A stretch of DNA of 58,275 nucleotides from a virus (Duplodnaviria; Caudoviricetes), in the IMG/VR virus record IMGVR_UViG_3300046697_000236, positions 1 through 58,275 of that record; one strand, written 5' to 3'. Positions 1,768 to 44,888 of the stretch are shown here, in pieces. A model generated the notes under the pieces. That model was not told where the DNA came from and made no database searches. It saw nothing but the letters and a program-made list of their open reading frames with translations. The position numbers and the translations under genes are program-made. Numbering within the stretch: the stretch's first letter is position 1; every line of letters begins with the position of its first letter.

Positions 1768-1770
1768 CCA

Positions 1771-2277: not shown

Positions 2278-2294
2278 GTGTTTATTATATTAGT

Positions 2295-2324: not shown

Positions 2325-2330
2325 GATATT

Positions 2331-3704: not shown

Positions 3705-3728
3705 TGTTTTGTTTATTTTACGTTTATA

Positions 3729-4529
3729 CTATTTCTTTTTTGAAATTTCTTTTTGTTTGGCTACTTCTCTCCAGTCCACGTCCTTGCCGTCTTTTTCTTT
3801 TGCTGGAACTGGTGATCCGGATTCGCTGGCGGCAACGATATTGGGCAATACTGGTTTCTCCGTAGTTATTTTCCTTTCTTTGATCTTGGTATTAAGTCCT
3901 TCGTTTTTACCATCCTCATGCGCTTCGGCAATCTTGGCTTGTGCTGTGAATCCTTCGTGTAGTTTTGCGATATGTTCGGGTGTCAATTTTCCATCATAAA
4001 GAGCCTGATGCATATCATTAATATGATCAACGAATGCTTTATGATCTTCATCGGATAATCCTTTCTCTTTCTTGAAGTTTTCCAGGTTCTTGCGGGACTC
4101 GGAAAGGTTCTTATTCAGTTCTTCACTGCGTTTCTTCATTCCCTCGACCTTGGCTTTTCTTTCACCAACAGCGGCTTTCATGTCCTCTGCTCCTTGCTCA
4201 CCATCACCGGGAACCAATTCTTCTGGATCAAAATGCGCTCCAATTGCAGACATGATGGTTTTGCGCTTACCCGTGGCATGATCACGAATCACGTCCGCCA
4301 ATCGGGGTTCTGCATGAAAAGCATCACTCATGATGTCCTTAAATTCACCATCTTTTTTTGATGTCTCGATAAGTGATTTGAGTTTTTCGGCTGCCTGTTC
4401 GGGAGTGGTTATCTTTTCTTCCGGATATCCTGCGGCAATTATTTCATGAAGCTGAACCGGAGTGGCTGCGGCTTCTGTAGGTTTAACTTCTGCGGGCGTA
4501 GCGACGGTATTATCTTTATTTTCAGACAT
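3729..4529 (-). CDS. Capsid scaffolding protein (putative)
   Basis: Highly charged coiled-coil protein directly upstream of the capsid gene. Confidence 0.6.
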   Translation of the reverse strand: MSENKDNTVATPAEVKPTEAAATPVQLHEIIAAGYPEEKITTPEQAAEKLKSLIETSKKDGEFKDIMSDAFHAEPRLADVIRDHATGKRKTIMSAIGAHFDPEELVPGDGEQGAEDMKAAVGERKAKVEGMKKRSEELNKNLSESRKNLENFKKEKGLSDEDHKAFVDHINDMHQALYDGKLTPEHIAKLHEGFTAQAKIAEAHEDGKNEGLNTKIKERKITTEKPVLPNIVAASESGSPVPAKEKDGKDVDWREVAKQKEISKKK

Positions 4530-24500: not shown

Positions 24501-27500
24501 CTAAGGTCTTCGTCTCCATTTAATATACTATTGGCTGATTTCAGCTCTCCTTTTCTTGTCTTACTATTTTTGGCATATTCATTCGCAGACTGAATCCTAT
24601 CCATAACCCTGTTTTTTGTAGTCACAGGCACCGTGGCAGACTCCTTGCCCATTATCATTGATGGTTTTACATAGGTCAACGGCTTCTTGGTCAGTCTTGG
24701 ATGTTGAACAAACTCAGCAAATTCCTCATTGGTCATTGTGGTTGTTGCTCCATGTCCAACCCAGTCAATAGAATAATTCTCACGGTAGGCATGTTCAGCT
24801 GCAGCCTGATATTTAAATCCGATCATGGCTTTGTACTCGTCAAATTCTCCGGAAGGGTCAACCTGATCAATAATATAGGTGTTCTTTGAAGCTAAATCGG
24901 GACCAAGGAAAACATCAATATGTTCGCCGGTACGATCTTTCGTTCCAAGAATATACCCATAAGGATTCTTCATTTCGGTTTTCCATTCCCTGCCTTGGGG
25001 GTCGGTTCCGGTTCTGACTGATCCGCGCGGGTTCTCAATAGAAATAGTCAACCCATTAATGTTCATCTTGCCTTTCGGGTAGTTGCCTGCTTCGATCTGT
25101 GCCTTGGAAGGATTCATCTCTGTTTCCTTTTCGGCTTGATCTAATTTCTTTTGAAGTTTTACTTCTTCAGGTGTTTGAAATATTCGACCTGTTCTAGTCT
25201 CTTCTTCGCCTGTCCCTTTGATAGGTTCGGTGCTGATAGGTTCTTGCCCTTTTCCGATACTACCTTGTATCCCTGACTTGTTTTTACTAACATTTGATTC
25301 TGGTTTTAATTCATCATGTTTTCTTTCCTCTTGCCTTCTGCTATATTCTTCCGGATTTTCTTTTTTAAGTTTCTCCATTTCGGCATCCGCTTCCGCCCAA
25401 TCATTTTTTCGGGGAGTATTTCGAAACTCTTCAGCATCTTTGGCAATCTTCTCTCGCGGTTCAATATCAGCGGGAGAGCCAGCACCTTGTTCAACCGGGT
25501 GCTGTACTCCAGATACATTTTCCTGAACAGGAGTAGTAATCTGTCCGCCTTCGGGAGGTGAACCCTGGTTCCCCTGAGTTCCAACCTCTTTTTCTTTTGA
25601 TAATATTTGCCAACCTGGAGTCATTTTGTTTCCAGTATTAACTTTCTTTAGTTCTAATACGAAATCGTCACCAATTTGCTCATTTAACTTATCAATTGCA
25701 ACTTTAGCCTCCGAGAACGTCATCATTTGTGAAAGCGATTCCCCCTTATTTTGTGTAGGAGTGAAAGTTGCTGCATTCTTATCTTCATATTGCACAACTA
25801 CTGGTTGCGGTTGTGCCTGTACTTGTTGTTGCGCTTGCTGTTCGACTTGGTTCTGTGTGGCTTCATCAATGTTCGGAGGGATGATTTGATCGTAATCCTT
25901 AGGATCAATATCAATTGAATTCTGACCTTCTACTGCAATTTTAATCCTTCCGTTCTGAATCTTCCGTATTCTTCCTTCCCTGCCACCAGAGAGCTGTATC
26001 ATGTCGCCCGCCTGTAGTTTGTTTACATAAAATTCGGTTAATTGATCTTTGATTTTATCAACAGGATATGCTTGTTGCATGTTGGCAACTTCTTTTTGAA
26101 TATATTCATCTTTGGTGAACTCACTAACAGGTGTTAGTTTATCATTCAGAATCATTTTTTTCTTTCCCTCGATAGGGTCATATACTATAGATGTCTCGTC
26201 ATTTAATGCACTAATCACATGAACGGGATTGCCTTCTATGTCTGTAGCTGTCTTAACTGTACCGGTGGCCTTGTCAGCATTTTGATTATAATTATCATTG
26301 GCTTTTTGATTATATCTGTTATTCCATGCTGTTTTTTCCGCATCTTCGAGTCTTAGTTGTCCGTTCGCCAATGTTTCTTTTATCCGTGCAGCGTCTTCTT
26401 TGGTTATCCTAACCGTGTTATTTAACTGATCCATAGAAACTGACCCAATAGATCCATCACTATTCACTATCTGAACTGGGACGTTTCTTTTAACATTGGC
26501 TTGTTCGTCACCTTCAAGCGATTCCCATGTTTTCCCATATAGTTTTTGAGAAATATTATCAACAATTTTATTCATGTTGGGATTACCCAACACAGCAACA
26601 ACACTTCCATCATCGGTCCTTGTGCCAAGATTATACCCGAATTTGTCAAAGTTTTCCTGTATGTTTTTAGGGAAACCTTTCATTGCGCCAACACCACCCA
26701 TAAATCCACCCATCAGCATCATGGGAAGTGCACTCGTGGCGAATATTTTCCCATAGTTTTTCCAATCATCAATCTTACCTGTGGGTAGCTCGTTAATAAA
26801 TTTAGTCGATGCTGCTAGCCCCCCCATGGTCAGACCGGCATTAATGCCATTTTTCAGTGCGGCGTCAGCAATATTCTTAAGCATATTTGGTGCTTCGGGA
26901 GCTGATGTAAGAAATTTAGATATGGCATAATCTGCAATTTCGGGATCAAGCTTCATTAATTGTGTTGCCGCAAAATCAGAAAGATATTTTCCCTGCATGG
27001 ACTGGGCAAGCTTCCCTCCCCATTGGCTCATAAATATTTGATTTAGTGCCCCTGACATTAATACCGCCCCTCCTTTTAGATATGGATTAATGTCCTCCCC
27101 TGTTTGTTTCTGATAATCATCAAGATTCTTAAGCGTTCCGCCCATTTGGTCCGCGGTCATTGTTCCAATCATACCTTGAGTCAATGCCCGACCTACAGTT
27201 CCAGATATTCCACCTATACCTTCACCTACCCCACCAACCGCAAATAAAGCTATAGGAAGTATCTGTTTTACAGCCTCCGCCCATCCCGTTGTGTTTTCCC
27301 CCTGCTGCATCCACCGTGCTCCCGTTGTTTGCATTTTGTTGCCAAGGTCGTCTTGGTTTAACGTGGAAATTTGTCCAAGAACTTCGGGTGTTGTCTTATT
27401 AGTACTTGGCGTTTCTGCTGGCAGGAATAATCCTCCGCTCATTCCTCCAAGACTGCCGATATTTTCAGCTCCTGTCTTGTAATCAGGAGAAATCAGCTCA

Positions 27501-28369
27501 CCAATACCTTTATACAACTCCTTTTCGGACCGTAAGCGATTGTCTTCGGTCTTTAAATCCATGTAGGTTCTTTTGTTCCATGGATGATCAATATACTTTT
27601 GATCCTCATCAATCCCCTTCATTAATGCAGCTTCTTGTGGAGTACCTTTTAAAATAGACGATAAATTATTCAGCTCTTCTTTGGCTGATTCAAGATAATT
27701 TATCTTCTTATCCATGTCGTTAATAAACGAGCCATTAGTAATTGTCTGATTCTTATCTAACCAATTATTTGAAAATGCATTATGTTGATTTTCAACATCT
27801 TTCGATTTGTTAAAATAGTCCTCCGGATTGTCTCCCAAATCCTCAAATTTAACTCCTTGGGTTTCTAGTGTTTTTTTAAGACACTCAAGCTTAGCTTGAC
27901 CTGAAAGATTTTTTACTGCTTCACCTGCTCCATAAAGTATTGGTCCTACAGTACTTTTTCCAAAAGCTTCTACTCCCTGCAGGGGGGTTGTTAATGACTT
28001 GATTTCTTTGGGTTGTTTATACGAGGGATCCATCCATTCCGCTGCTTGCTCTGAGGCAATATTCGGGAGATTTGCGGCTTGATTAAATTCATTACCAACA
28101 ACATCTGATCTGTCTTTATTTGTTATTGCCCAAGAAGGAAGCTTATTCTCTATTTCAGGACCTGATGCACCTTGGTCTATTTGGCTATTTTGTTTATTTT
28201 CCCCAATGCTTGCCGAACCGCCAACTTCTTTTCCTTTGGGAGAATAACCGTATTCTTCATCAATAAGCTGGTCGTCTGTTTTTGGAACAGAAGTATCAGC
28301 CTCTGGGTCTTTAACCTGAGAATTGTATAAAGAATCAAACTGCGCGAGTTCTTCCGGAGTAAAAGGCAT
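15545..28369 (-). CDS. Giant polyvalent (probably ejected) protein with PPase-like, zincin peptidase, JAB/RadC and LPD38-like domains
   Basis: YGYILGT..GEHIDVFLGP (~24750-25120), HEVGMHYGLR (~23760), HNHPSG..PSGEDI (~19685), LPD38-like C-terminus. Confidence 0.75.
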   Translation of the reverse strand: MPFTPEELAQFDSLYNSQVKDPEADTSVPKTDDQLIDEEYGYSPKGKEVGGSASIGENKQNSQIDQGASGPEIENKLPSWAITNKDRSDVVGNEFNQAANLPNIASEQAAEWMDPSYKQPKEIKSLTTPLQGVEAFGKSTVGPILYGAGEAVKNLSGQAKLECLKKTLETQGVKFEDLGDNPEDYFNKSKDVENQHNAFSNNWLDKNQTITNGSFINDMDKKINYLESAKEELNNLSSILKGTPQEAALMKGIDEDQKYIDHPWNKRTYMDLKTEDNRLRSEKELYKGIGELISPDYKTGAENIGSLGGMSGGLFLPAETPSTNKTTPEVLGQISTLNQDDLGNKMQTTGARWMQQGENTTGWAEAVKQILPIALFAVGGVGEGIGGISGTVGRALTQGMIGTMTADQMGGTLKNLDDYQKQTGEDINPYLKGGAVLMSGALNQIFMSQWGGKLAQSMQGKYLSDFAATQLMKLDPEIADYAISKFLTSAPEAPNMLKNIADAALKNGINAGLTMGGLAASTKFINELPTGKIDDWKNYGKIFATSALPMMLMGGFMGGVGAMKGFPKNIQENFDKFGYNLGTRTDDGSVVAVLGNPNMNKIVDNISQKLYGKTWESLEGDEQANVKRNVPVQIVNSDGSIGSVSMDQLNNTVRITKEDAARIKETLANGQLRLEDAEKTAWNNRYNQKANDNYNQNADKATGTVKTATDIEGNPVHVISALNDETSIVYDPIEGKKKMILNDKLTPVSEFTKDEYIQKEVANMQQAYPVDKIKDQLTEFYVNKLQAGDMIQLSGGREGRIRKIQNGRIKIAVEGQNSIDIDPKDYDQIIPPNIDEATQNQVEQQAQQQVQAQPQPVVVQYEDKNAATFTPTQNKGESLSQMMTFSEAKVAIDKLNEQIGDDFVLELKKVNTGNKMTPGWQILSKEKEVGTQGNQGSPPEGGQITTPVQENVSGVQHPVEQGAGSPADIEPREKIAKDAEEFRNTPRKNDWAEADAEMEKLKKENPEEYSRRQEERKHDELKPESNVSKNKSGIQGSIGKGQEPISTEPIKGTGEEETRTGRIFQTPEEVKLQKKLDQAEKETEMNPSKAQIEAGNYPKGKMNINGLTISIENPRGSVRTGTDPQGREWKTEMKNPYGYILGTKDRTGEHIDVFLGPDLASKNTYIIDQVDPSGEFDEYKAMIGFKYQAAAEHAYRENYSIDWVGHGATTTMTNEEFAEFVQHPRLTKKPLTYVKPSMIMGKESATVPVTTKNRVMDRIQSANEYAKNSKTRKGELKSANSILNGDEDLRNKYEITTDTDGDSFLIDKYSRKPVRRDVVKTARTEIESHPSLKEYDDPKFVEFVNTLLTDPRGKFWGVSNVGGEQATRDITKGKKSVASNKALDELKRQFDGNTIRAEKRNIPVDEWMDSMGDLNALSDISPNLIEDIEVPFKNEEEEIVPSKTFIDPKPTDNEVENITSMFNALDQFSENRPEILVHSFEDRLFKPNTSYSGGYFHGIRTAEFITDKIINSKERKDLGLSVSEYSKYLYVHEVGMHYGLRGILPEADIKQLCEKVFDYAENNDKAAFDRLKRLYPKAEKWQLGEEYLTHIAEKMHMEGELNFTKPEAKAWIQFLRNLRETIRKIFGKDIPLAYEDLKKIVHAAFNYHLTNSETTFKNEDINKTTEEDQPDLFSSVPGRDDNGLEAMGNGMAESGRSTIQNGNRLSEGGRPGIQESENTNVSPMVDNNKIEKKGILVSDQRRIKEAEANIQNLKDKIKQIARDKQAKINEIANRTQTQQSLAGFEGKKAVQQSMFDVNPDIDIENIKRILDPFEADKARVEAEIIRNHKLIEGIKRTAGDQWVLFKVEEIGTPIFHRGTEIHKIENQFSLKNEDFQDDNIYVSRGFISALKRGSIPTDDTTSEFHHYFVKDAERGFKAKKIYFKDQSLFKNESTEVFYSNTLRAIDKIQQEKATSEQWMAMLLKNGAKQSEMDWMGLPEFLKENPKLTKSDLTKFVNENKVELKEVVKEQAKVSQNDLDRINELTELRQKRRFTPEESKEFNTINDRLQIGSTDNTKFKGYVLPGGKNYKEWLLTMPSKPMTFEEYKNDSARNGVVFGSEERAKESYSEYLKEPGTDISKKENFKSSHWDEPNVVAHIRSQEFDEPDGTKSLVKEETQSDWQQKGRKEGFNSDESKAIRKKLHDEWTTVENEMIPLQKKSREGTELTQKETARLFELEKRDKELAEENKKLGLNPAPDMPFKNTEQITGLAFKRMLRYAAENGFDRICWPTGEQQAERYDLSKQVDSIHYDPLIKQLSARKGTQQVLKEQGVVPEKIADYIGKDAANKLLSSEINGAGNYELVGDDIKTQAPGMVGYYDKIEPSWIVKYIKPMGGVVGKHTLPNGVTLHSVEMTPAMLETGLGEQSMFKNEEESTLPEEKEQEVKPLPTFMQPVGRWEHPLDKVTNPMGGIQYLHPRETILNSIQPYHYKINAGLTGSTFLGNLNQAIEPTTLDKYPTLKGTQVAIYIRADFTQPGGWFDRGIRFGKPQLFIKAKSQEQASLMLSEGIKYLMQEVDNGNMSDPQPTGFEKLGFGGLNQIEKKHAGTGLYFVAHKNAGQLQYRLFKGTDPSKTILPDWDKKLPISIYDNLLKTAQDNPIAHKFLPNIIALKNSNFGQIYNNLSHFSDDSTVNEILREAGIKGWKRTEGDDTEYVVPDNSDLSIDHVQLLEPNVEYSQKDDIFVQVLNDAVNKLQDSDNINKSYGSKSFLQEYFQKAIDEAVMESKPKNTMGAGKQLSFDFVGRYNIPDQSSTEIPENHIIQGFAESLHISFAGQVIKFPRDIAQLFSLQRSPYIEKGHVVFVDKSGKIIANHSETLGIPSATSLGSKIDDTHDDNFIQIARMAKELNADVYLLHNHPSGNHLPSGEDIRATKNIAAQLTSGSEFKGHIIIDHNKFTIIYANGEFEEKEYKEPVDKLILPTPKVNDVILMTQFAKRLLTEKQLPSAIIMLNSQLKVAGYIPLLNSDITLLINEINEHVKNAGLYAAKHYAIVHDGSIKTTSLLKEQRSLSDGLIDIIDTKINQSYNSVIFQSPVQIRPVIKGYRLGEPEQRYLSEGIEKAVSIFGLTKNIRNAGFILPDGRMLNFVKDGRRLEHINIAKAFADFEAKPLEDQSHDKYDEARTYLERFIHDGAIRISAGDGMVEMNQHPTDEQLKLIGEALGDYRSRIFIDVHHDNGQTNSIEIPTAKGAEDIISEIKSKLNEPVEKKNYVSPVNAFFKNEEDPDQLMNEYLKDHMGNRRYLSIEEAIREAVQDTMLPVKKFMFDVVRAGGKITDDMDVWAKANSAASIMMSKDKELKTDFIEPFLDIAMKTAHEAGVDEQKLQEYMRAKDAIGRNKFKRIQNKDTEPKVYAGSIGNNPLTDDFAQRIINDLESKVDKKTIEKFWDQWRDLTDKNIDMNVEFGMLSISDGQKIKASWKDYVPQRGWKDDQSELFDYQNTQMGGAFNGLQKAKGRESQSADPIAQMINMAQCTIAYGVKNTYNQSMLHFVEANQLTKEGKPLLKGIVEPREVYYIKTKDEDGNESIEETYEKPKAELLKSGRAALKLFAEHKRLRPAEVAKQHEVPVMINGNKVRLVFGNEKMGSLVEVANALNKNNIQTISLAKLLDAPSKFLGRTTGWLSRSATGWNLAFQIPNLLRDLQYAWQANALFNNQGWAYAKNMGRALATIKDSFGKHFDPSTNPDHALYKLYTDNGGPTGFVNAQKISAIEKDLANVYKRYTGTNGILDKIGQSSALRWSKETFEKLSSFSEQTARFATFVTSIEKGRSVLTAIKDAKDVTSNFDTKGTLGKILGANYMFFNPSIQGADHALRMSGVGHEYDFPYTNEKGEYEEGKSNKQRNQRRKAMGVDALGWMVVGYFTAWVNSTIGNIDPVDGKPYYEKISPYVKHNNMIIPTMNEGHHVSIPIGFYFRNWYGLGAGLYEIVSGQTELGTGIGQALNGFTNAFAPVDVGGFVDRKGDFSCRPLIPGYGMGIHDLWSNEDYAQHTITREPFSQALEKVLPSSSLGKENVNPLIKGMTDFSFYVAGGNPNKHTLVNQRSELRGIQENVWKIADWNPSKVEYFLQYYTGGLGQFFNQLYKTTTHAVAAGTNIVSGKDAPFEKAGFEINDIPIFNRFYRNTYGDADMQEFNKLREENAAAKQNYSISTPAEIANYMSHPETARLYLRYKFMDNIEKHERKVSKLENKVDESNKDLITADETQENKIQLKKERADRIHNYLQMIKEADDAADNELKKHKP

Positions 28370-35284: not shown

Positions 35285-36121
35285 TTACATTGGTGAATAA
35301 ACAGACTGCCGGGATTTATCATCTAGAGGATTATAAACTTGGCTGATGTCCTGGTTGTGGTAATAATGCAAAATACTTTTAATTGATCTGTGTCCGGTCA
35401 TCTGCATTGTCTTTGGCAAACTTGCGTTATCAACCAACTTTGTAATGTATTGATGTCTGAAGCTGTGAGGGGTTATTTTCCTGCCGATCTGCGTTTCGGC
35501 TTCATGGAGTACATTTCTTATGCTTGTCTCAGAATATTGGCCTCCATTTGGATTTTCAAAAAGATACTCTTTTGGATTAAACCTTTTAAGATATGCCAAG
35601 ATATATTTTTTCGCTACCTCATGAATCTGAACATCCCGGTTAATTCCATGCTTTAAGGTGTGAATAAAGATTTTGTCATGGATTAAGTCTACTTGAGATA
35701 ATTTGATATTGAGTAATTCCGATATTCTTATGCCAGTCGAAAATAGAAGTATTGTAAAAGTTTTATGTTTCAGATTACTGATTGATTTCATTACAGATAC
35801 AAATTCCTCATAGGTCATTACTTGGTGAAATTTCTTTTCAGACTTAATTGGAACAAACCAATTCATTTTGTTTGGCTGTTTCAATACTCGTTCATAAAGA
35901 ATTTTGGCTGCACTGCAAATCACATTATAATAGGAATCTGAATACCGTTCCCGGAATCCCGAAAAGTATCGTTTCAAATCAAGTTCAGACATTCTATAAA
36001 CTCGCTCGTTCTCAGAAAGGAATTTATTCTTTACTGATTTGTAGTTTTCTTTTGTTATTTCCGACAGCGGCATGAGTCCTAATTCTATGGCATACCTTTT
36101 ATTTAACTCTGACAATTCCAT
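35285..36121 (-). CDS. Tyrosine recombinase; integron-integrase-like (cassette recombinase)
   Basis: GIRISE (R), TLKHG (K), HSFRH, GHRS, HYYH and C-terminal NPLD; adjacent to attI-like site and cassette array. Confidence 0.9.
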   Translation of the reverse strand: MELSELNKRYAIELGLMPLSEITKENYKSVKNKFLSENERVYRMSELDLKRYFSGFRERYSDSYYNVICSAAKILYERVLKQPNKMNWFVPIKSEKKFHQVMTYEEFVSVMKSISNLKHKTFTILLFSTGIRISELLNIKLSQVDLIHDKIFIHTLKHGINRDVQIHEVAKKYILAYLKRFNPKEYLFENPNGGQYSETSIRNVLHEAETQIGRKITPHSFRHQYITKLVDNASLPKTMQMTGHRSIKSILHYYHNQDISQVYNPLDDKSRQSVYSPM

Positions 36122-36147
36122 ATAAAATGATTTTAATTATCAAACAC

Positions 36148-36181
36148 TTACCTTTATTGTAATTAATATATGTTATGTGGC
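36148..36181 (+). other. attI-like site; crossover G/TT at 36172/36173
   Basis: AT-rich aattaatatatGTTATGTGGC 51 bp from the integrase start; no hairpin to its left; core complementary to GCCACATAAC at 36339. Confidence 0.75.
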
Positions 36182-36328
36182 ATTAGGCTTCGGTGCATTC
36201 ATTTCTCGCACCAATTCCATTATCTTCTCCATAACTTTAACAACATATTTTTCACTACATTCGGTTTCTATTTTTACACCAGCCCGAACCAATGGTGCTT
36301 CAATTGTAATTTTATATTTATTGTTCAT
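36173..36328 (-). CDS. Cassette 1 hypothetical protein (51 aa)
   Basis: MNNKYKIT...; stop TAA is the TTA of the recombination core. Confidence 0.65.
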   Translation of the reverse strand: MNNKYKITIEAPLVRAGVKIETECSEKYVVKVMEKIMELVREMNAPKPNAT

Positions 36329-36338
36329 AATAATTAAC

Positions 36339-36463
36339 GCCACATAACAACGTGTATAAAACATTGCCCTTCGTGGTCTTTTTTTAGTTTATATTAATTT
36401 TATAATTCTGTTCATTCTATTAAGTTCTGTGTTGGCAACGTTTCATACACGCAGCCGTTAGAG
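36339..36463 (+). repeat. attC-like site 1
   Basis: GCCACATAAC-cgtgtataaaacattgcc...ggcaacgtttcatacacg-cagcc-GTTAGAG. Confidence 0.85.
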
Positions 36464-36540
36464 TTCAATCGGATTGCTCGCACTAAGCCCTCCCGCTGCA
36501 ATCCGAACGAGAAAGCAAAATTAAAATAAATGCCACCCCA

Positions 36541-36873
36541 CTAAAAATAATTAACCTCGTAACTTACTTTCATTCCTTCATCAAAAGAATATAGAGGCGA
36601 AGGAAATTCAAACGTAACAATACGTTCTCCTTCAATGGTATCGTTATCTACATACCATATTTCTTTGTCTGGATATTTTTCGCATATAATACGTTTGAAT
36701 CTCCTTTTGCTAAGATCATTTAATAAATATCCATATCCTTTTTTGATAAGTCGATCTTTAATTATTTCTTCTTTTTTCGCCTCTATATCTGAGGCCTGTT
36801 TCATCAATAATTCATTTAATGAGCGTTGTTTATCACCCATCTCCGAAAATAATGATTCTAAATTTTTATCCAT
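36541..36873 (-). CDS. Cassette 2 hypothetical protein (110 aa)
   Basis: ATG 36873 preceded by GGGAGGT. Confidence 0.7.
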   Translation of the reverse strand: MDKNLESLFSEMGDKQRSLNELLMKQASDIEAKKEEIIKDRLIKKGYGYLLNDLSKRRFKRIICEKYPDKEIWYVDNDTIEGERIVTFEFPSPLYSFDEGMKVSYEVNYF

Positions 36874-36971
36874 ATTACCTCCCAAATTTATTTTAATTAA
36901 GCATCTTTTCTCTTTGAACTCTAACGATCAGTAGCAACAGCCCATCTACATAGTACCCACGCAATCCGACT

Positions 36972-37076
36972 GACTCTAACAAGACCTATCAGCGATATAT
37001 GCGCTGTACTTCGGGGCTGTTTCAGCTTTACTTTATGCGAAGCGCATAAACCGCTGATAGCTCCTGATCGTTAGTC
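36972..37076 (+). repeat. attC-like site 2
   Basis: gactcTAAC-ctatcagcgatatatgcgct...agcgcataaaccgctgatag-ctcctgatc-GTTAGTC. Confidence 0.8.
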
Positions 37077-37200
37077 GCAAACCGCTTGCACCCCAATGAT
37101 GCCCGAAGCGGTCATCCCCTTTAACACACACGGGCGAACAAAACAATGAAATAAAATAAAATTAGTTTTACCACCACACATCGGATTGTACCAATCCGTG

Positions 37201-37230
37201 AAAATAAGGGCTGCTATCATACAGCCCCTA
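37201..37230 (-). terminator. Intrinsic terminator-like hairpin inside cassette 3
   Basis: GGGCTG-tatgatag-CAGCCC-TTATTTT on the minus strand just after the cassette 3 gene. Confidence 0.55.
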
Positions 37231-37245
37231 TCAATATTACCTTAA

Positions 37246-37461
37246 TCAATCCTTAAGGTCAACCAATATCCAACTATCAGCCGATACCAGTTCACTCCTG
37301 CCATTATTCATGCAGGTTTTTTTTCCATTTAATTGAGCAACTGAATCTATTAAATCTAATAGATTCCCTGATAATTGATCAAGTTTTTCTGTCTTGTCGA
37401 TAAGGGTTTTTACTCTGTTTTCAAGAAAATACACCCTGTTTTCTAATTTTTCTTTTGTCAT
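37246..37461 (-). CDS. Cassette 3 hypothetical coiled-coil protein (71 aa)
   Basis: MTKEKLENRV...; A-rich upstream region. Confidence 0.65.
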   Translation of the reverse strand: MTKEKLENRVYFLENRVKTLIDKTEKLDQLSGNLLDLIDSVAQLNGKKTCMNNGRSELVSADSWILVDLKD

Positions 37462-37638
37462 ACTTTTAATTGTTTTAAATTTATAATAAAGATAATAAAA
37501 AAATAAAAATTTCCTTCCCAAAAAACTAATTTAATTTATTTCAAAGTTTCTTTGTTCTTTTGCGACTAATGGCCGAGGCTGAGAGGCGTAATGTAATACG
37601 GCTTCTTTCTGTATCATATTACCCTTGCAAGTGGTCAG

Positions 37639-37743
37639 ACGACTAACAGGTCTGTAAACGTAATCGAGCGTATTACAAAAGCCTCAAACTCTCGTCGGGC
37701 AAAACAAAACGCCCGACTACGTTTACAGCCTCGGCCATTGGGA
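37639..37743 (+). repeat. attC-like site 3 (non-canonical A/TT core)
   Basis: acgacTAAC-ctgtaaacgtaatcgagcgt...acgcccgactacgtttacag-cctcggcc-ATTGGGA. Confidence 0.8.
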
Positions 37744-37880
37744 AGAATTATGCTCGCACGGCTATCCGCACAAAGCATCCACCTTCCACCACACTCACCA
37801 AAAGCAAATTCTTCCCAATGAGTCGGGCATAAGGCCGTCCGCACATTCCATCTATGACTTGCGCCTCCCCGCAAAACTCT

Positions 37881-38129
37881 CACCAACAAGTCATAAATGA
37901 AATAAAATCTATGACTTTTTTCGCCACCACTCACATGATCTATATGAACGTAGTACCCTAAATAACCCAGTACTATTATTAATATAATTTAATACGCAAA
38001 CACCCTTCTGATATTTGACAACTCTGTCATAATAATCACAGTTTGTACATTTTTTTTCCATATTTATATAATTTACATTTCGCACAAAAGTCATAAATTT
38101 TACATTCACTTATGCCCGACTCGTTACCT
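37881..38129 (+). repeat. attC-like site 4 with a gene in its loop
   Basis: cacCAAC-aagtcataaatgaaataaaatctatgac...gtcataaattttacattcacttatg-cccgactc-GTTACCT. Confidence 0.7.
37909..38061 (-). CDS. Cassette 4 small Cys-rich protein (50 aa)
   Basis: MEKKCTNCDYY...C...CEWW, possible zinc-binding. Confidence 0.6.
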   Translation of the reverse strand: MEKKCTNCDYYDRVVKYQKGVCVLNYINNSTGLFRVLRSYRSCEWWRKKS

Positions 38130-38666
38130 GCAATGCCTTTCAACACTTGCGATAGTGTCGTGAATAGCCCCGCCATGTGAAAATAATGCAATTCGCTCAA
38201 CATTAAAGCCTCTATTAACTCCCATTGTGTTACTGTGGTAGCCGAAGGTTATTACAAGTCCATTTGGTTTTAGTATTCTCGGTAGTTCATCTTTAAGTTG
38301 GCGAAACGGTGAGGCTTTAATACCTTTGTACATTTCCATACTTTTACGATATGCGTATGGCGGGTCTAACAAAACCGTAGCAAACCTATCTCCATTCCAC
38401 TCTTTTACAAATTGTAGCGCATCTTTGTTATAGTCTGCCAACGCTTCAATATCAAGGTCGTTTCTTATTTCATCTATATTTAGCTTTGTTTTGCCAGCAA
38501 ATAAATTAAGCGTCTTGCCTTCGCACGTTTTTTCAGTCCACTCCCTAATAGGTTTGATACTAAACGTCCATCTACTTAATGGGCATTTTATGTAATCGAA
38601 CAACGGCACAGCAGGTAACACGGTATATAGTGCATTGCTTCCGTTCTCTGTTTTTAGTTTATCCAT
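38124..38666 (-). CDS. Cassette 5 DNA adenine methyltransferase-like protein
   Basis: LNLFAG (motif I) and LDPPY (motif IV); starts in the attC loop and stops in the core. Confidence 0.75.
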   Translation of the reverse strand: MDKLKTENGSNALYTVLPAVPLFDYIKCPLSRWTFSIKPIREWTEKTCEGKTLNLFAGKTKLNIDEIRNDLDIEALADYNKDALQFVKEWNGDRFATVLLDPPYAYRKSMEMYKGIKASPFRQLKDELPRILKPNGLVITFGYHSNTMGVNRGFNVERIALFSHGGAIHDTIASVERHCR

Positions 38667-38732
38667 AATTTTAACTTTTGTATTTCAATTTTAGTTTTGT
38701 GATGCAACGCACCATATACCCAATCGTTATAC
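38611..38732 (+). repeat. attC-like site 5
   Basis: GCAGGTAAC-ggtatatagtgcattgc...gcaacgcaccatatacc-caatc-GTTATAC. Confidence 0.85.
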
Positions 38733-38817
38733 CGCAATCCTTCCCAGCTCACACAATCCACCCCCAAAGTATTGCGGTATAACGGGCGAGCGCATTCGCA
38801 CACCGCTGTGAAGGACA

Positions 38818-39071
38818 GCGGATAACACCACATAAAGCAAATTTTATAATCTTAAATTTCACGCACAATCTGTTTTTCATCTATTTCTATCATTGAATCA
38901 TCATCAAAATCATCTCCATCGTAATACCATGAATTAAACATCCAATGCGCAACGTGCCAAAATGGTTTATCTGACCATTTATAACCTAATACCCAATAAT
39001 AACCATCTTCTCTTTTCATATATCCAAAATTTAAAATTATAAAACTTGCCTTATGCGCTCGCCCGTTATGT
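38818..39071 (+). repeat. attC-like site 6 with a gene in its loop
   Basis: gcggaTAAC-cataaagcaattttataat...attataaaacttgccttatg-cgctcgccc-GTTATGT. Confidence 0.75.
38852..39019 (-). CDS. Cassette 6 small Trp-rich acidic protein (55 aa)
   Basis: MKREDGYYWV...; the longer track start crosses the cassette boundary. Confidence 0.65.
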   Translation of the reverse strand: MKREDGYYWVLGYKWSDKPFWHVAHWMFNSWYYDGDDFDDDSMIEIDEKQIVREI

Positions 39072-39137
39072 TCAATTAAATATTTTAAAAGTTTTTTGCC
39101 CACGCTCTCTTTCAATTTTTTCAAAATTGTGAAAAGG

Positions 39138-39716
39138 TTAGTTAAACCATCTAATTACTGTTTCGCCTTTAAATCCTTTCTCCCAAACATACCACGCATA
39201 GCAATTAGCAGAAGGTGTATTGTATTTCACAAAGTCTGCATTTTTAGCTAACAGCAATCTACTGCTGCTCACATAAACATATTTCGGAGGGTATGCTTTC
39301 AAAAATGGTTTTCGCCTTTGTCCTTCTAAAAATTGTATTCGCATAAGCATTACTACTTTACTTCCATCATCTACTAATCTCAATGCGTGTTCGCAAAATT
39401 GTTTCGCATCTCCGTATGGTGGGTTGGTAAGTATATCTCCATTCCAAGTTTCTAATTGCTCATACAAGTTTATTCCTGTTTCGCCATATCCTCTATCAAT
39501 CAAATCACTTGCCCTGCCAAGCAATCCTTTTGCTTCTAACACCTTTGCTAAATGCCCTTCACCACAGGCACACTCCCAAACATTTTTCAATTCTATTTCG
39601 GGCAAAAATATTTCTAATGCTTTCGGGTCGGTTGCGTAAAAATCATTTTCTTCTCTTTCTCCGTCAGCGTGAGCAGATGCTCCTAATGTTGTAAAATCTC
39701 CTTTTTTCATAATCAT
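39138..39716 (-). CDS. Cassette 7 N6-adenine DNA methyltransferase
   Basis: DFYATD, WECACGEG and LTNPPY motifs. Confidence 0.8.
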   Translation of the reverse strand: MIMKKGDFTTLGASAHADGEREENDFYATDPKALEIFLPEIELKNVWECACGEGHLAKVLEAKGLLGRASDLIDRGYGETGINLYEQLETWNGDILTNPPYGDAKQFCEHALRLVDDGSKVVMLMRIQFLEGQRRKPFLKAYPPKYVYVSSSRLLLAKNADFVKYNTPSANCYAWYVWEKGFKGETVIRWFN

Positions 39717-39806
39717 TGTTTTAAGTTGTAAATAAATCCCACCGCACCCCTCTCAAAAAAACTTTTAAAATATTTAACTGCCCTTCGCTCGAAAACCCTA
39801 CGCACC

Positions 39807-39880
39807 AACATAACACCGTATATACGCTATTCTCCCACCCACAAGCAACGCACAACAGCGCATATACTTTTTCGTTAGGT
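39807..39880 (+). repeat. attC-like site 7
   Basis: AACATAAC-gtatatacgct...agcgcatatac-T-run-c-GTTAGGT. Confidence 0.8.
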
Positions 39881-39886
39881 GCAATA

Positions 39887-40786
39887 TTAAAAAATAGCCC
39901 CACCGCACATCGGCTTTTTCAAAGCCGTTTGGATAGCTACATCGTAAGTTACACCATTGTTTTTATAATTCATTCCTATTTCAAATGCTTTTGGTTGTGT
40001 TTCTTTTAATCTTATAAATCTATCGTCTTTGTGGCAACCAAATCCACAAATCATACAGCCTGTCTGTGTTTCTCCTTTGTCGTAAATTTCACAATACGGT
40101 ATTTTGTTTTGTTTTATAAAGTTCCATTTATCTTCATCAGTCCAAATACTTATCGGATAACTTGCAGGTCTATTCACTTCAAAAGCATTGCATCCAGTAG
40201 TTAAGTATTTTTGTAGTCTTAATCTGCTTTCATTTACAGAAGTTCCGATAATTGGAAATAGCTTATTTTCTTTTTCATACTTGTATGCAGGTCGCTTCTT
40301 TAAGTGGTAACAGCATTTTTCTGAAATATCAAATGGTGTATTTATTAAGTGTTGCCATTTATTTGATATTTTGCCCTGATTTCCTTTTCTGCCATTCAAT
40401 CTAAGTTCTAAAAGTTTTTCACTTTTTGTTGTTCTTGCTTCCCTTATGTATTGTGCCTGTTCTTTTGATATTAAGGGAAATCCACATTTTTCAATAACTG
40501 ATTTTAAATTCATTTCAGGCTGTATTTTCACACAGTCAATTTCTTTTATGAACTTATAAATCTCTGGAAATTCATTTGTAGTATTGAAAAATACTGCTTT
40601 AATATCAGGTTTAATAATCCTTGCTAAATGCAGTAATATTGTGCTGTCTTTACCTCCACTAAAAGAAACATAAGCATTTCCATTTGAGTAAGTCAAAGCA
40701 TTTTCAATAGTAAAAAGTGAATGGTCAATCTTTTGGTCAAGTGTCCAATTCAATCTTTCGTTTAATATTTCTCTTGTAATTATCAT
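39887..40786 (-). CDS. Cassette 8 PAPS reductase family protein
   Basis: SFSGGKDS PP-loop, SEKCC and TGCMICGFG Cys motifs. Confidence 0.85.
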   Translation of the reverse strand: MIITREILNERLNWTLDQKIDHSLFTIENALTYSNGNAYVSFSGGKDSTILLHLARIIKPDIKAVFFNTTNEFPEIYKFIKEIDCVKIQPEMNLKSVIEKCGFPLISKEQAQYIREARTTKSEKLLELRLNGRKGNQGKISNKWQHLINTPFDISEKCCYHLKKRPAYKYEKENKLFPIIGTSVNESRLRLQKYLTTGCNAFEVNRPASYPISIWTDEDKWNFIKQNKIPYCEIYDKGETQTGCMICGFGCHKDDRFIRLKETQPKAFEIGMNYKNNGVTYDVAIQTALKKPMCGGAIF

Positions 40787-40835
40787 AATGTGAAAATAAA
40801 AATTTCCCACGCTTCGCTATTTTTTAAGTATTAAT

Positions 40836-42097
40836 GCAAAAGAAATCCCCTATCCCTTTAGGGTAGCGGGATGAATTTTGCCTGTTTTTGTTTGTTATTA
40901 TGGTTATTAATCGTATATTTGCATTGTGAGAGCGTATAAATTCAGAATATATACTACAAGAAAACAAGAGGAGTTGCTGCAATTCACTCTTAATCATTGC
41001 CGTTGGCTTTATAACACAGCGCTTCAACAGCGAAGGGATGTTTATAGGAGTACGGGCAAAAGCATTGGTTATTCCATCCAGCAAAACGAAATGCCTCTTT
41101 TGAAAGATCAGTTTCCCGAATACAGACAGATTCATTCTCAGGTCTTGCAGAGCGTTCTTAAACGTGTTGATCTGGCCTACCAAAGTTTCTTTCGCAGGAT
41201 TAAGCAAAAGGGAGAAAAAGCCGGATTTCCTCGCTTTCACGGCAAAGAACATTACGATAGCTTCACCTACCCCCAAAGTGGTTTTTCGTTTACTAAAGGC
41301 AAAAACAGGATTAATCTTTCCAAGATAGGACTGGTAAAAATTAAACTTCATAGACAAATTCCTCTTGGCACTCAAATAAAAACCTGCACAATTAAAAGAG
41401 AGAGCGATAAATGGTATGCCATTTTCTCCTGTATGCTTTCTAATCCAGCCCCAAAAAAGAAAGCCGTTACAAATGTTATCGGTATTGATCTGGGGTTGAC
41501 CGATTTTGCCGTATTGAGTAATGGAGAAGAAATTGCCAATCCCAAATATCTGAAACAGTCTGAGGATAAACTTAAAGAAATTCAAAGCAAGTACTCTAAA
41601 GGTAAAAGCAAGAAGGTTAAACGACAGATTGGTAATCTTTATCATAAAATCACTAATCAGCGCAACGATTTTCAGCACAAACTTTCTTATAAATTGGTAA
41701 ATACTTTTGATCTTATTGCTTATGAAGATTTGAAAATAAAACAAATGATTGAAGATAATAAATTCAATCTTCAAAAACATATTTCCGATGCCGCTTGGGG
41801 TAAATTTATTTTTATGCTTAAATACAAAGCTGAAAACGCTGGTAAGTATTGCATAGCAGTAAATCCAAAAGGCACAACGCAAAGGTGCAGTCATTGTAAC
41901 TCTGTTGTGAAAAAAACGCTCTACGAACGCTCTCACAAGTGTCCTGCTTGCGGTTTTGAAACAACAAGGGACATCAATGCTGCACTGAACATTGAAAAGC
42001 TGGGTATCAGCTTGGTTGATAAATCTGTATGTTCTGATATAGTTCATCCTTTTTTGTTTTCCGAAGCCGCTTCGCCTTTAGGCAAGCGGTAGTTCAC
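40836..42097 (+). mobile_element. IS200/IS605-family element, TnpB only (IS1341-type), inserted in cassette 8
   Basis: Subterminal hairpins with ctttagg loops at both ends, right end ...ggtagTTCAC, upstream TTAAT; left boundary approximate. Confidence 0.8.
40926..42092 (+). CDS. tnpB: RNA-guided endonuclease TnpB
   Basis: AYKFRIY HTH, GIDLG / YEDL / RDINAALNI RuvC motifs, CSHC..CPAC zinc ribbon; TATATTTG promoter just upstream. Confidence 0.93.
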   Translation: MRAYKFRIYTTRKQEELLQFTLNHCRWLYNTALQQRRDVYRSTGKSIGYSIQQNEMPLLKDQFPEYRQIHSQVLQSVLKRVDLAYQSFFRRIKQKGEKAGFPRFHGKEHYDSFTYPQSGFSFTKGKNRINLSKIGLVKIKLHRQIPLGTQIKTCTIKRESDKWYAIFSCMLSNPAPKKKAVTNVIGIDLGLTDFAVLSNGEEIANPKYLKQSEDKLKEIQSKYSKGKSKKVKRQIGNLYHKITNQRNDFQHKLSYKLVNTFDLIAYEDLKIKQMIEDNKFNLQKHISDAAWGKFIFMLKYKAENAGKYCIAVNPKGTTQRCSHCNSVVKKTLYERSHKCPACGFETTRDINAALNIEKLGISLVDKSVCSDIVHPFLFSEAASPLGKR

Positions 42098-42103
42098 TAC
42101 AGA

Positions 42104-42234
42104 CACCTAACACGTGCTATAAGCAATAGCGGGTTCGCTGGTTATTTGAAGTTCTGTATCTCGTTCAATCATTTATTGTAATTTGAAAGTTTATCACTCG
42201 TATTCCGCTACTGCTCAGAGCACCACCGTTAGCA
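42104..42234 (+). repeat. attC-like site 8
   Basis: CACCTAAC-gtgctataagcaatagcgg...ccgctactgctcagagcac-cacc-GTTAGCA. Confidence 0.85.
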
Positions 42235-42240
42235 GTAATA

Positions 42241-43089
42241 CTACATTCCATCTCCGAATAAAGTTTTCTGCGTTAAATCTTTTTCTTTTCTTTTTTCTCC
42301 CGCCCTTTTTAAAATCAAATCAATATTACTTTGTTCTTTATCAATTAGTAGGTAGTTTCTATTTGTATCAATGCAAACAAGTCCAGTAGTTCCACTTCCT
42401 GCAAAGCAATCCACTATCAAATCACCTTCGTTGCTAAAACTTTTTACAAAAAACTCAACCAACTTTTCAGGGAATGTTGCTGAATGGTCGCTCTTTAAAG
42501 TAAATTGGTTGCTTACATTATTTACGTTTACAACATTTGAAGGTCTTGCAAATTCAAGGTTTCTTATATTGGTTGTGTTCATTCCTGTCATACCACTTCC
42601 GTTTTTTGGCGCACCACATTGTTTTCTGTATGTTCTTGCAATACTTTCTTCCTTCATTGGCGTTCCGCAAGCAATCGGGTTAAATGTTATTTGGTTTGGG
42701 TTTCCTTTTGTAAAGTGGTAAACAGGCTCAAAAGCGTTTTTAAACCTACCTTTCAAACTACCTGGAAATGCGTTTTTAGTCCAGCAATATTCTTCTACAA
42801 ATAAAAATCCAAGTTCCTTTTTTAGCATAATAACCAATTCAAAAACGTATAAACTTCTTTCTCCTTTATTGGTATGCGGTTTTATATTCAAAAAGAAACT
42901 ACCAGTTGGCTTTAAAACCCGTTTAACCTCAATCGCAATAGGTTTGAACCACTCTAAATATTTATCTTCTGCAATACCACCATAGGTATTTTTTCTCCTA
43001 TCTGCATAAGGTGGCGAAGTAAATACCATATCCACGCTATTGTCAGCAAGTTTTTTTAGTTCGTTTTCACTATATCCGTGTATTATCAT
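42241..43089 (-). CDS. Cassette 9 beta-class N4-C/N6-A DNA methyltransferase
   Basis: FTSPPY, HSATFP and DCFAGSGTTG motifs; start probably MIIHG. Confidence 0.88.
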   Translation of the reverse strand: MIIHGYSENELKKLADNSVDMVFTSPPYADRRKNTYGGIAEDKYLEWFKPIAIEVKRVLKPTGSFFLNIKPHTNKGERSLYVFELVIMLKKELGFLFVEEYCWTKNAFPGSLKGRFKNAFEPVYHFTKGNPNQITFNPIACGTPMKEESIARTYRKQCGAPKNGSGMTGMNTTNIRNLEFARPSNVVNVNNVSNQFTLKSDHSATFPEKLVEFFVKSFSNEGDLIVDCFAGSGTTGLVCIDTNRNYLLIDKEQSNIDLILKRAGEKRKEKDLTQKTLFGDGM

Positions 43090-43186
43090 ATTTTTAATTT
43101 TTTCAAAATTATTTTTGCCATCGCTCAAAAAAAGAAAAGAAAAAGGTTCGGTTCTTCGATTGAGCATTTGTGGTTTAAATCCGTAC

Positions 43187-43220
43187 TACTGCTAACATCG
43201 TGCTGAGAGGCGTAATGTAA
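43187..43220 (+). repeat. Left arm of attC-like site 9 (right arm not found)
   Basis: TACTGCTAAC is the reverse complement of GTTAGCAGTA at 42228. Confidence 0.6.
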
Positions 43221-43308
43221 AAACCAAGCAATGTTTTTATCTGTTTGCGTTTTAGAATTGTAACCAGTTATTTCTTTTTGTTTTGGTAATTTTTCTGTTG
43301 TTGTCATA

Positions 43309-43455: not shown

Positions 43456-43971
43456 CTATCGCTTAGATTTACCTTTGAATTCAATCTTCTGATTTTTTTC
43501 AACAAATTGTATTTCGCCGGATTGCAGTTGTTTTACGGTAGTATCAAAAGTACACGTATTGGCATATTGCTTCTGTTCCTTCCGATAAAAAAATGCCTTT
43601 CTTCCAATTTCGTCCCATTCTTTTTCTGTGGTAGTTCTATGATTCCACGCTATCATCCAGTCGGGTTCTTGATCCGCTTCTGCTTTTCTAAAAAACACCT
43701 TCTTAAAATTAACAATCAGTGTTTTGGAATTTAACTTATCTAATTCAATTGTTCCTCCGGCAATTTGAGCGAAAAATGTTACGAGCAAACCACGTCTATA
43801 GTTTCCGTAGCGGGATAAAACAAATTCCATAAATTCCGATAGCCATGTTGCGAAATGGGTTCCGTCTGGTTTTGCCTGCCCTATCGATACCATTGTTTTT
43901 GCCATAAGTTCCGCAATTATTTTTCTCAAGTCAATTTCTGGCAATTCTTTTATTTTTAAATTATTATCCAT
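43456..43971 (-). CDS. Hypothetical replication-associated protein
   Basis: Overlaps the end of the initiator-like gene. Confidence 0.5.
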   Translation of the reverse strand: MDNNLKIKELPEIDLRKIIAELMAKTMVSIGQAKPDGTHFATWLSEFMEFVLSRYGNYRRGLLVTFFAQIAGGTIELDKLNSKTLIVNFKKVFFRKAEADQEPDWMIAWNHRTTTEKEWDEIGRKAFFYRKEQKQYANTCTFDTTVKQLQSGEIQFVEKNQKIEFKGKSKR

Positions 43972-44725
43972 TTTGATAGTCTTTAATGAAATCCAAAGGA
44001 CTTCCGTTATTAAACTTACTTTCTGGTAGCGTGTATTTTAATTCTATTTCCCATGAACGCTGATGTAGAAATGTTTTTAAATGTTGCCACCCAGCAATAA
44101 AGGCCTTTTTTTCTTTTGCTTCTTCGCGTATCTTTATTTGATTTTCAATAATAAACTTAAGCCTTGGTAAAATCTCATTCCAATCTTTGTGTTTTTTAAA
44201 CTCAGCGAATTCTGTTTCTAATCCCCTCTTAGTACCTGGATATAATTTTCTAAACTCGTCAAAAATTAAAATACTATCTTGCTCTATTGTTTCTTGTTTA
44301 TTTGTTTCTTGTTTATTTGTTTCTTGTTTGTCTATATAGACCTTGCTTTGACCAATGCTTTGCCCGGTGCTTTGTCCTTGCTTTGCCCGGTGCTTAATGA
44401 ATGCTTTGTCCAGTGCTTTGTCTTTTTTTGGCATAGCATAAGTTATACTTATTATATTGGCAGAATATTGATTTTGAGACTTTTGAACCATTTTAAAGAA
44501 TCCCCAACTTATAAGATCATTAAAATACTTAATATAAGTCTGATGCTTCTTTATTCCTATTGCCTCCATAACCATCTGTGACGGAAACCCGAATTTCTCT
44601 TTATCTCCAAGTCTATTACAATGCTCTAATGCAAAAAAGTAAATAGCCGTATGACCTGGACTTATTTTCTCAGGGTTTTCAAAGCTGAAATTAAACCAAT
44701 TTCGTGATAAATCAAAAGAGTTCAT
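43964..44725 (-). CDS. Putative replication initiator (lambda O-like layout)
   Basis: N-terminal wHTH-like region, repeat-rich linker, FDEFRKLYP C-terminal domain. Confidence 0.65.
   Translation of the reverse strand: MNSFDLSRNWFNFSFENPEKISPGHTAIYFFALEHCNRLGDKEKFGFPSQMVMEAIGIKKHQTYIKYFNDLISWGFFKMVQKSQNQYSANIISITYAMPKKDKALDKAFIKHRAKQGQSTGQSIGQSKVYIDKQETNKQETNKQETIEQDSILIFDEFRKLYPGTKRGLETEFAEFKKHKDWNEILPRLKFIIENQIKIREEAKEKKAFIAGWQHLKTFLHQRSWEIELKYTLPESKFNNGSPLDFIKDYQNG
44286..44422. repeat. Iteron-like repeats; putative replication origin
   Basis: Three 15-bp tttgtttcttgttta-type units plus seven TGCTTTG-type boxes at 11-12 bp spacing (44344-44420). Confidence 0.65.
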
Positions 44726-44739
44726 ATTATAAATAATAA

Positions 44740-44888
44740 ACTCCACTAAAGAAAAAGCCATGTAGGAAAGCGTCAACAAACCTTTCATGGCTATTCGATA
44801 GTGGAGTATTTTGTTTAAGATTATTAAACTTATTCATTTGACACTTTTATGTTGACAAACATACAATTTTTATTTCAATCCACAAATT
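44740..44888 (-). promoter_or_regulatory. Promoter and structured leader of the replication gene
   Basis: TATGTTTG at 44856-44863; long hairpin actccacta/tagtggagt 44740-44807. Confidence 0.55.

Follow-up and report, generated by a model that had tools for sequence, protein, structure and literature searches.

The analyzed window is the whole 58,275-bp IMG/VR record IMGVR_UViG_3300046697_000236 of a phage (Duplodnaviria; Caudoviricetes). The record has direct terminal repeats, and the runs listed as containing this phage are peat metagenomes, with no RNA run among them. From approximately 34 kb to the right end of the window, nearly all genes are located on the minus strand. Within this part, the region 35285-43196 is probably a phage-borne integron-like gene-capture platform, which would consist of an Xer-type tyrosine recombinase, an attI-like site and nine cassettes in reversed orientation. 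This reading is drawn from comparisons of sequences.

The region 36172-43196 is a chain of nine units with alternating GTT-type and AAC-type cores. The cores of the G|TTA type are located at positions 36172, 36457, 37070, 37737 (ATT), 38123, 38726, 39065, 39874 and 42228; those of the TAAC type end at positions 36348, 36925, 37570 (AAT), 37819 (AAT), 38619, 38783, 39814, 42111 and 43196. Each unit begins at G|TTA, continues through cargo on the minus strand and a TAAC core, and passes into an imperfect hairpin, with the next G|TTA as its end. The stretches from GTT to AAC are bounded by inverted repeats of 8-13 nt that contain the cores at both ends, and usually one minus-strand gene lies inside. 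The stretches from AAC to GTT are the imperfect hairpins, eight in number and 66-314 nt long. Like attC sites, they carry AAC and GTT triplets and are otherwise variable in sequence and length. The cargo comprises three DNA methyltransferases, a protein resembling phosphoadenosine phosphosulfate (PAPS) reductase and small proteins without an assigned family.

Folding was evaluated as a z score against mononucleotide shuffles; 27 coding 120-mers that served as a control averaged z -0.56. Hairpins 2, 3, 4 and 6 were very stable, with z from -5.6 to -9.4. With a strict site descriptor, 42 sites were detected in 97 kb of array sequence versus 2 in 127 kb outside arrays, while one of two other generic hairpin detectors was too permissive and the other too strict. 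An automatically collected set of hairpins with 7-mer cores gave -6.0 kcal/mol for own-arm and -4.8 kcal/mol for cross-arm pairing; this set was contaminated by chance cores and was not used.

For comparison, we used four IMG/VR phages of the same layout (L003-L006), whose recombinases are 41-48% identical to that of the window, two short metagenome contigs with a related recombinase (L111 and L112), the Polaribacter phage Freya_10 (L109) and eight cultured Flavobacterium phages. The latter are 97-100% identical outside their arrays, which are of the same type. Variants of the window phage were represented by contigs from other peat runs, including X3, X4 and X6. Note that such a hairpin reads AAC...GTT on either strand; any claim about orientation therefore rests on the place of attI and on which hairpin is paired with which gene.

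The phages L005 and L006 show 99.4% identity through the backbone and the recombinase gene and split exactly at a G|TTA approximately 50 nt from the start codon. A unit of 472 nt, in which a gene segment is joined on the attI-distal side to a hairpin, opens the array of L005 and comes after approximately 2.5 kb of other cassettes in L006. All the edges of such blocks inside the two arrays (4/4) coincide with GTT cores, one of them beside the recombinase gene. In the variant contigs, the window sequence is left at 38122 (two runs), at 39873/39876 and at 42227/42230 (two runs), which correspond to three GTT cores. Seven loose ends were located at GTT cores among the 18 listed out of 33, and several others were at the ends of an insertion sequence (IS) in cassette 8. 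Reads were also checked for joints and none were found. In the eight Flavobacterium phages, 57 distinct junction contexts were collected, namely 39 of the GTT type, 7 of the AAC type and 11 others. Inspection revealed that one "AAC" context was a misassigned GTT site and that three "other" contexts were the terminal GTTA of the array. The conserved left junction was followed by a different first cassette in seven of the eight phages.

Based on these comparisons, the mobile unit consists of TTA, a minus-strand gene, TAAC, a hairpin and G, in that order, with the hairpin on the 5' side of the gene and attI beside the recombinase gene. The original prediction had placed attC upstream of or around the gene, and three comparisons agreed with it by pairing each gene with the hairpin on its 5' side. 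The crossover falls at G|TT, as in integrons, and a cassette contains one gene region and one attC-like hairpin; a minority of breaks is found at the other core.

The distribution of breaks also bears on a different explanation, according to which the cores are dif-like double-stranded Xer sites in alternating orientation, the modules, of the pdif style known from Acinetobacter plasmids, moving by ordinary Xer-type exchange and the hairpins being incidental. It would account for an Xer-like enzyme, for cores that alternate in orientation and frame gene segments and hairpins alike, and for gene segments that occur between different hairpins. However, it predicts equal numbers of breaks at both orientations, whereas GTT cores prevailed in all the counts (39 versus 7, 4/4, and 7 versus 1 among the loose ends listed). 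In addition, only 4-5 nt are common at the junctions, and the arms of a hairpin match each other yet differ between hairpins. In pdif-type modules, two 11-bp arms and a 6-bp spacer between them make up a site of 28 bp; our analysis, which did not include a search for a 28-bp two-arm site, revealed no dif-like site. We therefore regard this explanation as very improbable.

Even less credible is the possibility that the hairpins are regulatory or structural intergenic elements, such as terminators, RNA stem-loops or the promoter-plus-stem-loop cassettes of T4-type phages, that are shuffled by homologous recombination. It is true that a hairpin lies 5' of the gene each time, that the gene-sense strand, which is also the mRNA-sense strand, folds better in the window family, and that a promoter-like motif occurs in two cassettes. 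On the other hand, the sequences on both sides of the junctions are unrelated and only the core is shared, the -7 motif stands just before the start codon in only two of the nine cassettes, and no Rfam family was matched in the window at gathering thresholds (a tRNA scan likewise gave 0 hits).

The integron-like reading assigns the exchange to the gene adjacent to the array (35285-36121, minus strand). It encodes an Xer-like tyrosine recombinase of 278 aa (PF00589, 83.5 bits). The best match among the NCBIfam models was XerA (112.2 bits, with a cut-off of 220), and lower scores were obtained for XerC (80.5 bits, cut-off 335) and XerD (68.8 bits, cut-off 330); hence the protein is below the equivalog cut-off in all three cases. 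The integron-integrase models TIGR02249 and PRK15417 gave 66.8 bits (cut-off 265) and 36.9 bits (cut-off 435), respectively, which places the protein outside IntI as well. The closest solved structure was XerA (5hxy), and IntI4 (2a3v, 320 aa) could be aligned over residues 67-203 only. Thus, the enzyme is not an IntI but a small Xer-like recombinase that scores below the Xer equivalog cut-offs, and the label "integrase" in the original prediction has to be corrected in this sense, judging from the NCBIfam scores. Twenty-two metagenomic relatives of 268-300 aa were collected. A single-sequence search of viral contigs revealed no relative, and the viral relatives were found with an alignment of homologues. 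The scans of genomes and metagenomes gave distant relatives only, except for two short contigs.

The attI-like junction occupies positions 36122-36175 (no strand assigned), and its crossover G|TTA (36172-36175) is 50 nt from the recombinase start codon. A GTT core is located 47-60 nt from this codon in the window, L003-L006, L111, L112 and Freya_10. The position of attI next to the recombinase gene, which had been predicted, is supported by the L005-L006 homology, which ends exactly at the G|TTA beside the gene. The L005/L006 pair, the eight lineages and the Flavobacterium junction all place attI at the 5' end of the recombinase gene or mark it as the main insertion point. A Pc-like motif is absent from attI: no TAnnTTTG was found on the plus strand at 36100-36200.

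A comparison with classical integrons showed both common and distinct features. According to passages of Nivina et al. 2016 (PMC5027507), the classical reaction cuts the folded bottom strand at its AAC triplet and thereby places the promoterless gene downstream of Pc, while recombining the top strand would invert the cassette. The same passages describe the bottom strand as more stable, purine-rich and richer in G:T pairs, with extrahelical bases lying opposite the cleaved AAC triplet, on the other arm. As in classical integrons, the recombinase gene of the phage reads away from the adjacent attI, the units are bounded by hairpins with AAC/GTT cores, exchange takes place at G|TT, new units enter at attI and each unit starts with a sequence complementary to its own inner core. 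Again, the strand presumed to be reactive is the more stable and G-rich one: the gene-sense strand folded more stably in 8/8 hairpins of the window and in 5/5 hairpins of L005, GC skew was negative on the plus strand in all 8 window hairpins, and the wobble pairs of the window family were on the gene-sense strand (5 versus 0). Unlike classical integrons, the phage system has a 278-aa Xer-like enzyme that scores far below the IntI models, its genes occupy what is the non-coding strand in integrons, each with the hairpin 5' of it, and they face attI. The other arm carries the extra unpaired bases, there is no Pc-like motif at attI, the location is a phage genome and the cargo consists mostly of DNA methyltransferases. 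With respect to Xer/dif systems, XerA-type enzymes are the closest relatives in sequence and structure, yet the scores remain far below the equivalog cut-offs and the recombinase gene stands beside a phage cassette array.

Several observations weigh against the integron-like reading. Four of the hairpins (1, 5, 7 and 8) fold end to end with only modest stability (z from -1.6 to -3.3, minus strand), and the ninth hairpin region (43191-43290) is degenerate and gave no fold above shuffles. Some exchange does not follow the GTT rule. One loose end was at a TAAC core (42108, run X6; among the 18 listed), and the true AAC-end contexts of the Flavobacterium phages trace to two independent events. The gene segment of cassette 9 lies between different hairpins in the window, in the Flavobacterium phage mymlan6-1 and in L005, and a cassette of L005 with ends like those of cassette 1 (core pair GTTATGTGGC / GCCACATAAC) carries a gene unrelated to that of cassette 1. 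Since segments with the same ends are combined with unrelated genes or different hairpins, exchange at the TAAC-side core happens too. The strand features are not uniform either. In the mymlan array, stability is unbiased between strands (3 plus, 4 minus and 2 ties), and the G:T wobbles of the basal stem favour the opposite strand in Flavobacterium phages (13 versus 2). The longer unpaired spacer (4-6 nt versus 1-3 nt) adjoins the cleaved triplet at 16/17 Flavobacterium sites and at 4/7 sites of the window family, the other 3 being symmetric. With respect to the spacer arm, the mymlan stability and the Flavobacterium wobbles, the phage sites are not a simple mirror image of classical attC. Finally, no tyrosine recombinase was found in any of the five whole Flavobacterium phage records searched (0/5), although their arrays vary at the same cores. 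Therefore, a phage-borne enzyme is not required for array variation, and the recombinase of the window may do something else.

The last point is central to the strongest alternative, according to which the array is a cluster of attC sites lacking an integron integrase (CALIN) and is served by an enzyme of the host or of a co-infecting element, while the neighbouring gene is a lysogeny integrase with its attP. Clusters of attC were described in 17 phages (Qi et al. 2023, PMC9892861). For the Polaribacter phage P12002L, the excerpted text of that paper reports 2 predicted sites "with divergent directions", no recombinase, and recombination of one site by the bacterial IntI1. The P12002L array resembles that of the window in that its methyltransferase genes are on one strand and its TAAC...GTTA hairpins have a short 5' and a long 3' spacer; no integrase adjoins it. 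In the same excerpts, no Xer-like recombinase, attI or reversed cassettes are described for phage CALINs (PMC9892861). Moreover, the Freya integrase was interpreted as a sign of a temperate lifestyle in a passage of Bartlau et al. 2021 (PMC8776804). A CALIN is defined by two or more attC sites within a few kb in the absence of an integron integrase, and the window array corresponds to this definition; an adjoining recombinase of a non-IntI type is unforeseen by this class.

Three results argue against a lysogeny integrase. In eight lineages, with recombinases only 27-51% identical to that of the window, the first core keeps its distance of 47-60 nt from the start codon. A scan of 185,579 bacterial and archaeal species, each represented by one genome, gave no relative with more than 32% identity, i.e., no such prophages were seen. 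In addition, the recombinase is short and leaves little room for the arm-binding domain that is typical of phage integrases. Taken with both its merits and these results, the alternative of a CALIN beside a lysogeny integrase seems unlikely.

The orientation of the cargo was analyzed separately. The cargo ORFs (open reading frames) at 36173-43167 are all on the minus strand and read toward attI, co-directionally with the recombinase gene, as the original prediction had stated; the genes upstream of the array (43456-44788) are on the same strand. The arrangement typical of integrons, with an ORF before attC reading away from attI, was not found in any cassette. Greedy ORF calling in arrays gave minus/plus counts of 15/1 for the window, 16/1 for L003, 16/2 for L004, 16/3 for L005 and 22/3 for L006; some of the plus-strand ORFs are shadows of minus-strand genes, and one minus-strand ORF opposite tnpB is a shadow as well. 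In the eight Flavobacterium arrays, all annotated genes (15-24 each) are on one strand. The same is true of the ten genes ahead of the integrase in Freya_10 and of P12002L, one small ORF excepted. The proposal to compare orientation across homologous arrays was thus followed, and the orientation proved uniform, with genes facing attI in all the arrays analyzed; the random orientation that would have refuted the original prediction was not seen. That genes run in the same direction as a phage gene block is not unusual as such; by comparison of the arrays, it is the orientation relative to the polarity of recombination that exceeds chance. It was also observed that the array region of L004 encodes a 475-aa TROVE-domain (Ro60-like) protein (2913-4340).

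The original prediction had placed early promoters at about 44860 and 49725. A motif scan revealed a candidate promoter on the minus strand (44856-44870) with an exact Bacteroidota -7 motif TAnnTTTG at 44863, upstream of the gene block that continues into the array. A second exact TAnnTTTG is located on the minus strand at 49730. Expression of the cargo would occur mostly by read-through from such promoters upstream of the array. Given the geometry of the units, new cassettes would land furthest from these promoters, just ahead of the recombinase gene, which would itself be the last gene of the transcript.

As the comparison of arrays shows, units come and go and change their order by site-specific exchange at G|TTA, and new units enter mainly at attI. 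The circular form of a unit has the classical topology (gene, AAC, hairpin, GTT, gene). The 3' end of the gene and the hairpin flank the crossover, which lies in the AAC of the gene-sense strand instead of the antisense (bottom) strand used classically, and as a consequence every gene faces attI and has its hairpin on the 5' side. The adjacent recombinase may catalyze this exchange on folded single strands. Since the cargo consists mostly of DNA methyltransferases, escape from host restriction is its likely use. A more specific version of this proposal, to which we give somewhat less than even weight, is a separate phage-specific capture system. In such a system, a minimal Xer-type recombinase without the extra domain of IntI would act on folded single-stranded hairpins and choose the gene-sense strand, cassettes would be stacked at the promoter-distal end of the early operon as a library of anti-restriction genes, and the length of the array would set the amount of recombinase. 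It might be an independent invention or a simpler sister of integrons.

The integron is seen as a device of bacteria whose defining component is IntI, and the strand choice of this enzyme is taken to explain why the genes of cassettes have a fixed orientation. In the phages analyzed here, the logic of the integron (attI, hairpin sites and exchange at G|TT) appears with a different, simpler recombinase and genes on the opposite strand. If the link to the enzyme is true, it becomes testable whether an Xer-type enzyme recombines folded single strands without the IntI-specific domain and what sets the choice of strand. Array exchange may also offer a mechanism by which methyltransferase genes are turned over so fast. 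In Baltic Flavobacterium phages, according to a passage of Nilsson et al. 2020 (PMC7077304), the content and turnover of methyltransferases went with the efficiency of plating on different hosts.

Phage attC clusters have already been published (PMC9892861), and the link to a recombinase and the reversed polarity were not found in print. Literature searches by title and abstract revealed no paper on an Xer-like recombinase beside phage cassette arrays or on reversed cassettes. Array repeats are not mentioned by Nilsson et al. 2020 (PMC7077304), whose text does not contain "hairpin", "palindrom" or "variable region". Likewise, "hairpin", "cassette" and "variable region" are absent from the text of Bartlau et al. 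2021 (PMC8776804).

Cultured phage-host pairs exist, namely the Polaribacter phages Freya_1 to Freya_10 and the Flavobacterium Muminvirus set. The ten Freya isolates are from one host, with genome lengths that vary by up to 4.9 kb. The match of Freya_1 to Freya_10 begins only at position 4098, which is 49 nt before the integrase gene and corresponds to the first GTT core site; the region ahead of the integrase in Freya_10 covers positions 1-4147.

All nine cassettes were assigned to the minus strand. Cassette 1 (36173-36457) contains ORF63 (36173-36364) and hairpin 1 (36343-36461); its inverted-repeat ends are GTTATGTGGC and GCCACATAAC, and the minus strand folds with -13.8 (z -3.3). ORF63 is a weakly supported ORF without homologues in family and homology searches. 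Cassette 2 (36458-37070) contains ORF114 (36541-36885) and hairpin 2 (36920-37074), with inverted-repeat ends of 12 nt and folds of -33.3 / -40.4 (z -6.8 / -9.4); a TAnnTTTG lies 17 nt ahead of the ATG at 36873. Cassette 3 (37071-37737) contains ORF91 (37246-37521), the doubtful ORF49 and hairpin 3 (37565-37741); its inverted-repeat ends are GTTAGTCGCAAA and TTTGCGACTAAT, and its fold has z -6.7 / -7.2.

Cassette 4 (37738-38123) consists of an empty 63-nt segment and the 314-nt hairpin 4 (37814-38127), which has a small ORF (37909-38109) in its loop, a 13-nt inverted repeat and a fold with z -5.6 / -5.8. The break at 38122 in contigs of X3 and X4 is at the border of this cassette, and in one variant contig hairpin 7 is joined to a start that resembles that of cassette 4. 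Cassette 6 (38727-39065) is built similarly, with an empty 55-nt segment, the 292-nt hairpin 6 (38778-39069) and a 13-nt inverted repeat (z -7.5 / -9.0); the small ORF in its loop (38852-39124) has a probable ATG at 39019. In both of these cassettes, the small ORF sits in the hairpin loop and the usual place of the gene is an empty stretch of 55-63 nt.

Cassette 5 (38124-38726) contains a gene for a 180-aa DNA methyltransferase (38124-38666; phrog_11619, 1.7e-41) and hairpin 5 (38614-38730), which overlaps the first codons of this ORF and folds on the minus strand with -11.6 (z -2.6). The stop codons of cassettes 1 and 5 had been predicted to be the TTA of the core, and they do coincide with it (36173-36175 for ORF63 and 38124-38126 for the methyltransferase). 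Cassette 7 (39066-39874) contains a gene for a 192-aa DNA methyltransferase (39138-39716; phrog_799, 9e-56), hairpin 7 (39813-39878) and an inner 22-nt inverted repeat at 39076 / 39777; the contig breaks at 39873 / 39876 belong to this cassette.

Cassette 8 (39875-42228) contains the gene of the PAPS-reductase-like protein (39887-40810; 307 aa, PF01507, 1e-23), the IS element (40822-42097) and hairpin 8 (42108-42232), and the contig breaks at 42227 / 42230 belong to it. The tnpB gene of the IS (40926-42092; domains PF07282, PF01385 and PF12323) is the only plus-strand gene of the array. It is part of the 1276-bp TnpB-only IS, whose insertion has the start of the PAPS-reductase gene on one side and the TAAC core on the other, and does not count as cargo of the cassette. 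The limits of the IS are given by a 1276-nt contig of exactly this element in run X6, with a depth of 36 versus 2-5 in the flanks; therefore, the element is multi-copy or resident elsewhere in the X6 community. An origin of the hairpins as ends of TnpB elements or their miniature derivatives was rejected, as the IS has ends of its own and forms a discrete insertion, and as hairpins are present in phages without such an element.

Cassette 9 (42229-43196) contains a gene for an N6/N4 DNA methyltransferase (42241-43167, probable start at 43089; 308 aa, PF01555, 3.9e-45) and terminates with the TAAC core at 43196. Its ends are 85-89% identical to those in mymlan6-1 and 76-83% identical to those in L005, and the likeness stops at the cores. 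Thus, the ends are kept at 76-89% across three phages, and the body of the gene shows no detectable likeness at the DNA level. The conserved end pairs are located at 42228-42313 and 43081-43197 in the window, at 2821-2907 and 3615-3722 in L001 and, in flipped orientation, at 14764-14924 and 15531-15642 in L005. An inner 21-nt inverted repeat (42276-42296 / 43128-43148) lies within these ends. A stretch of approximately 19 nt is common to the 5' arm of hairpin 3 (37577-37596) and to positions 43203-43222 past the last TAAC core, where a hairpin at the far end of the array may have left it as a remnant.

Upstream of the array, short tandem repeats with periods of 15 nt and 23 nt (44277-44432) are located within an ORF of 274 aa. 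In another part of the window, a single minus-strand ORF of 4274 aa occupies positions 15545-28369.

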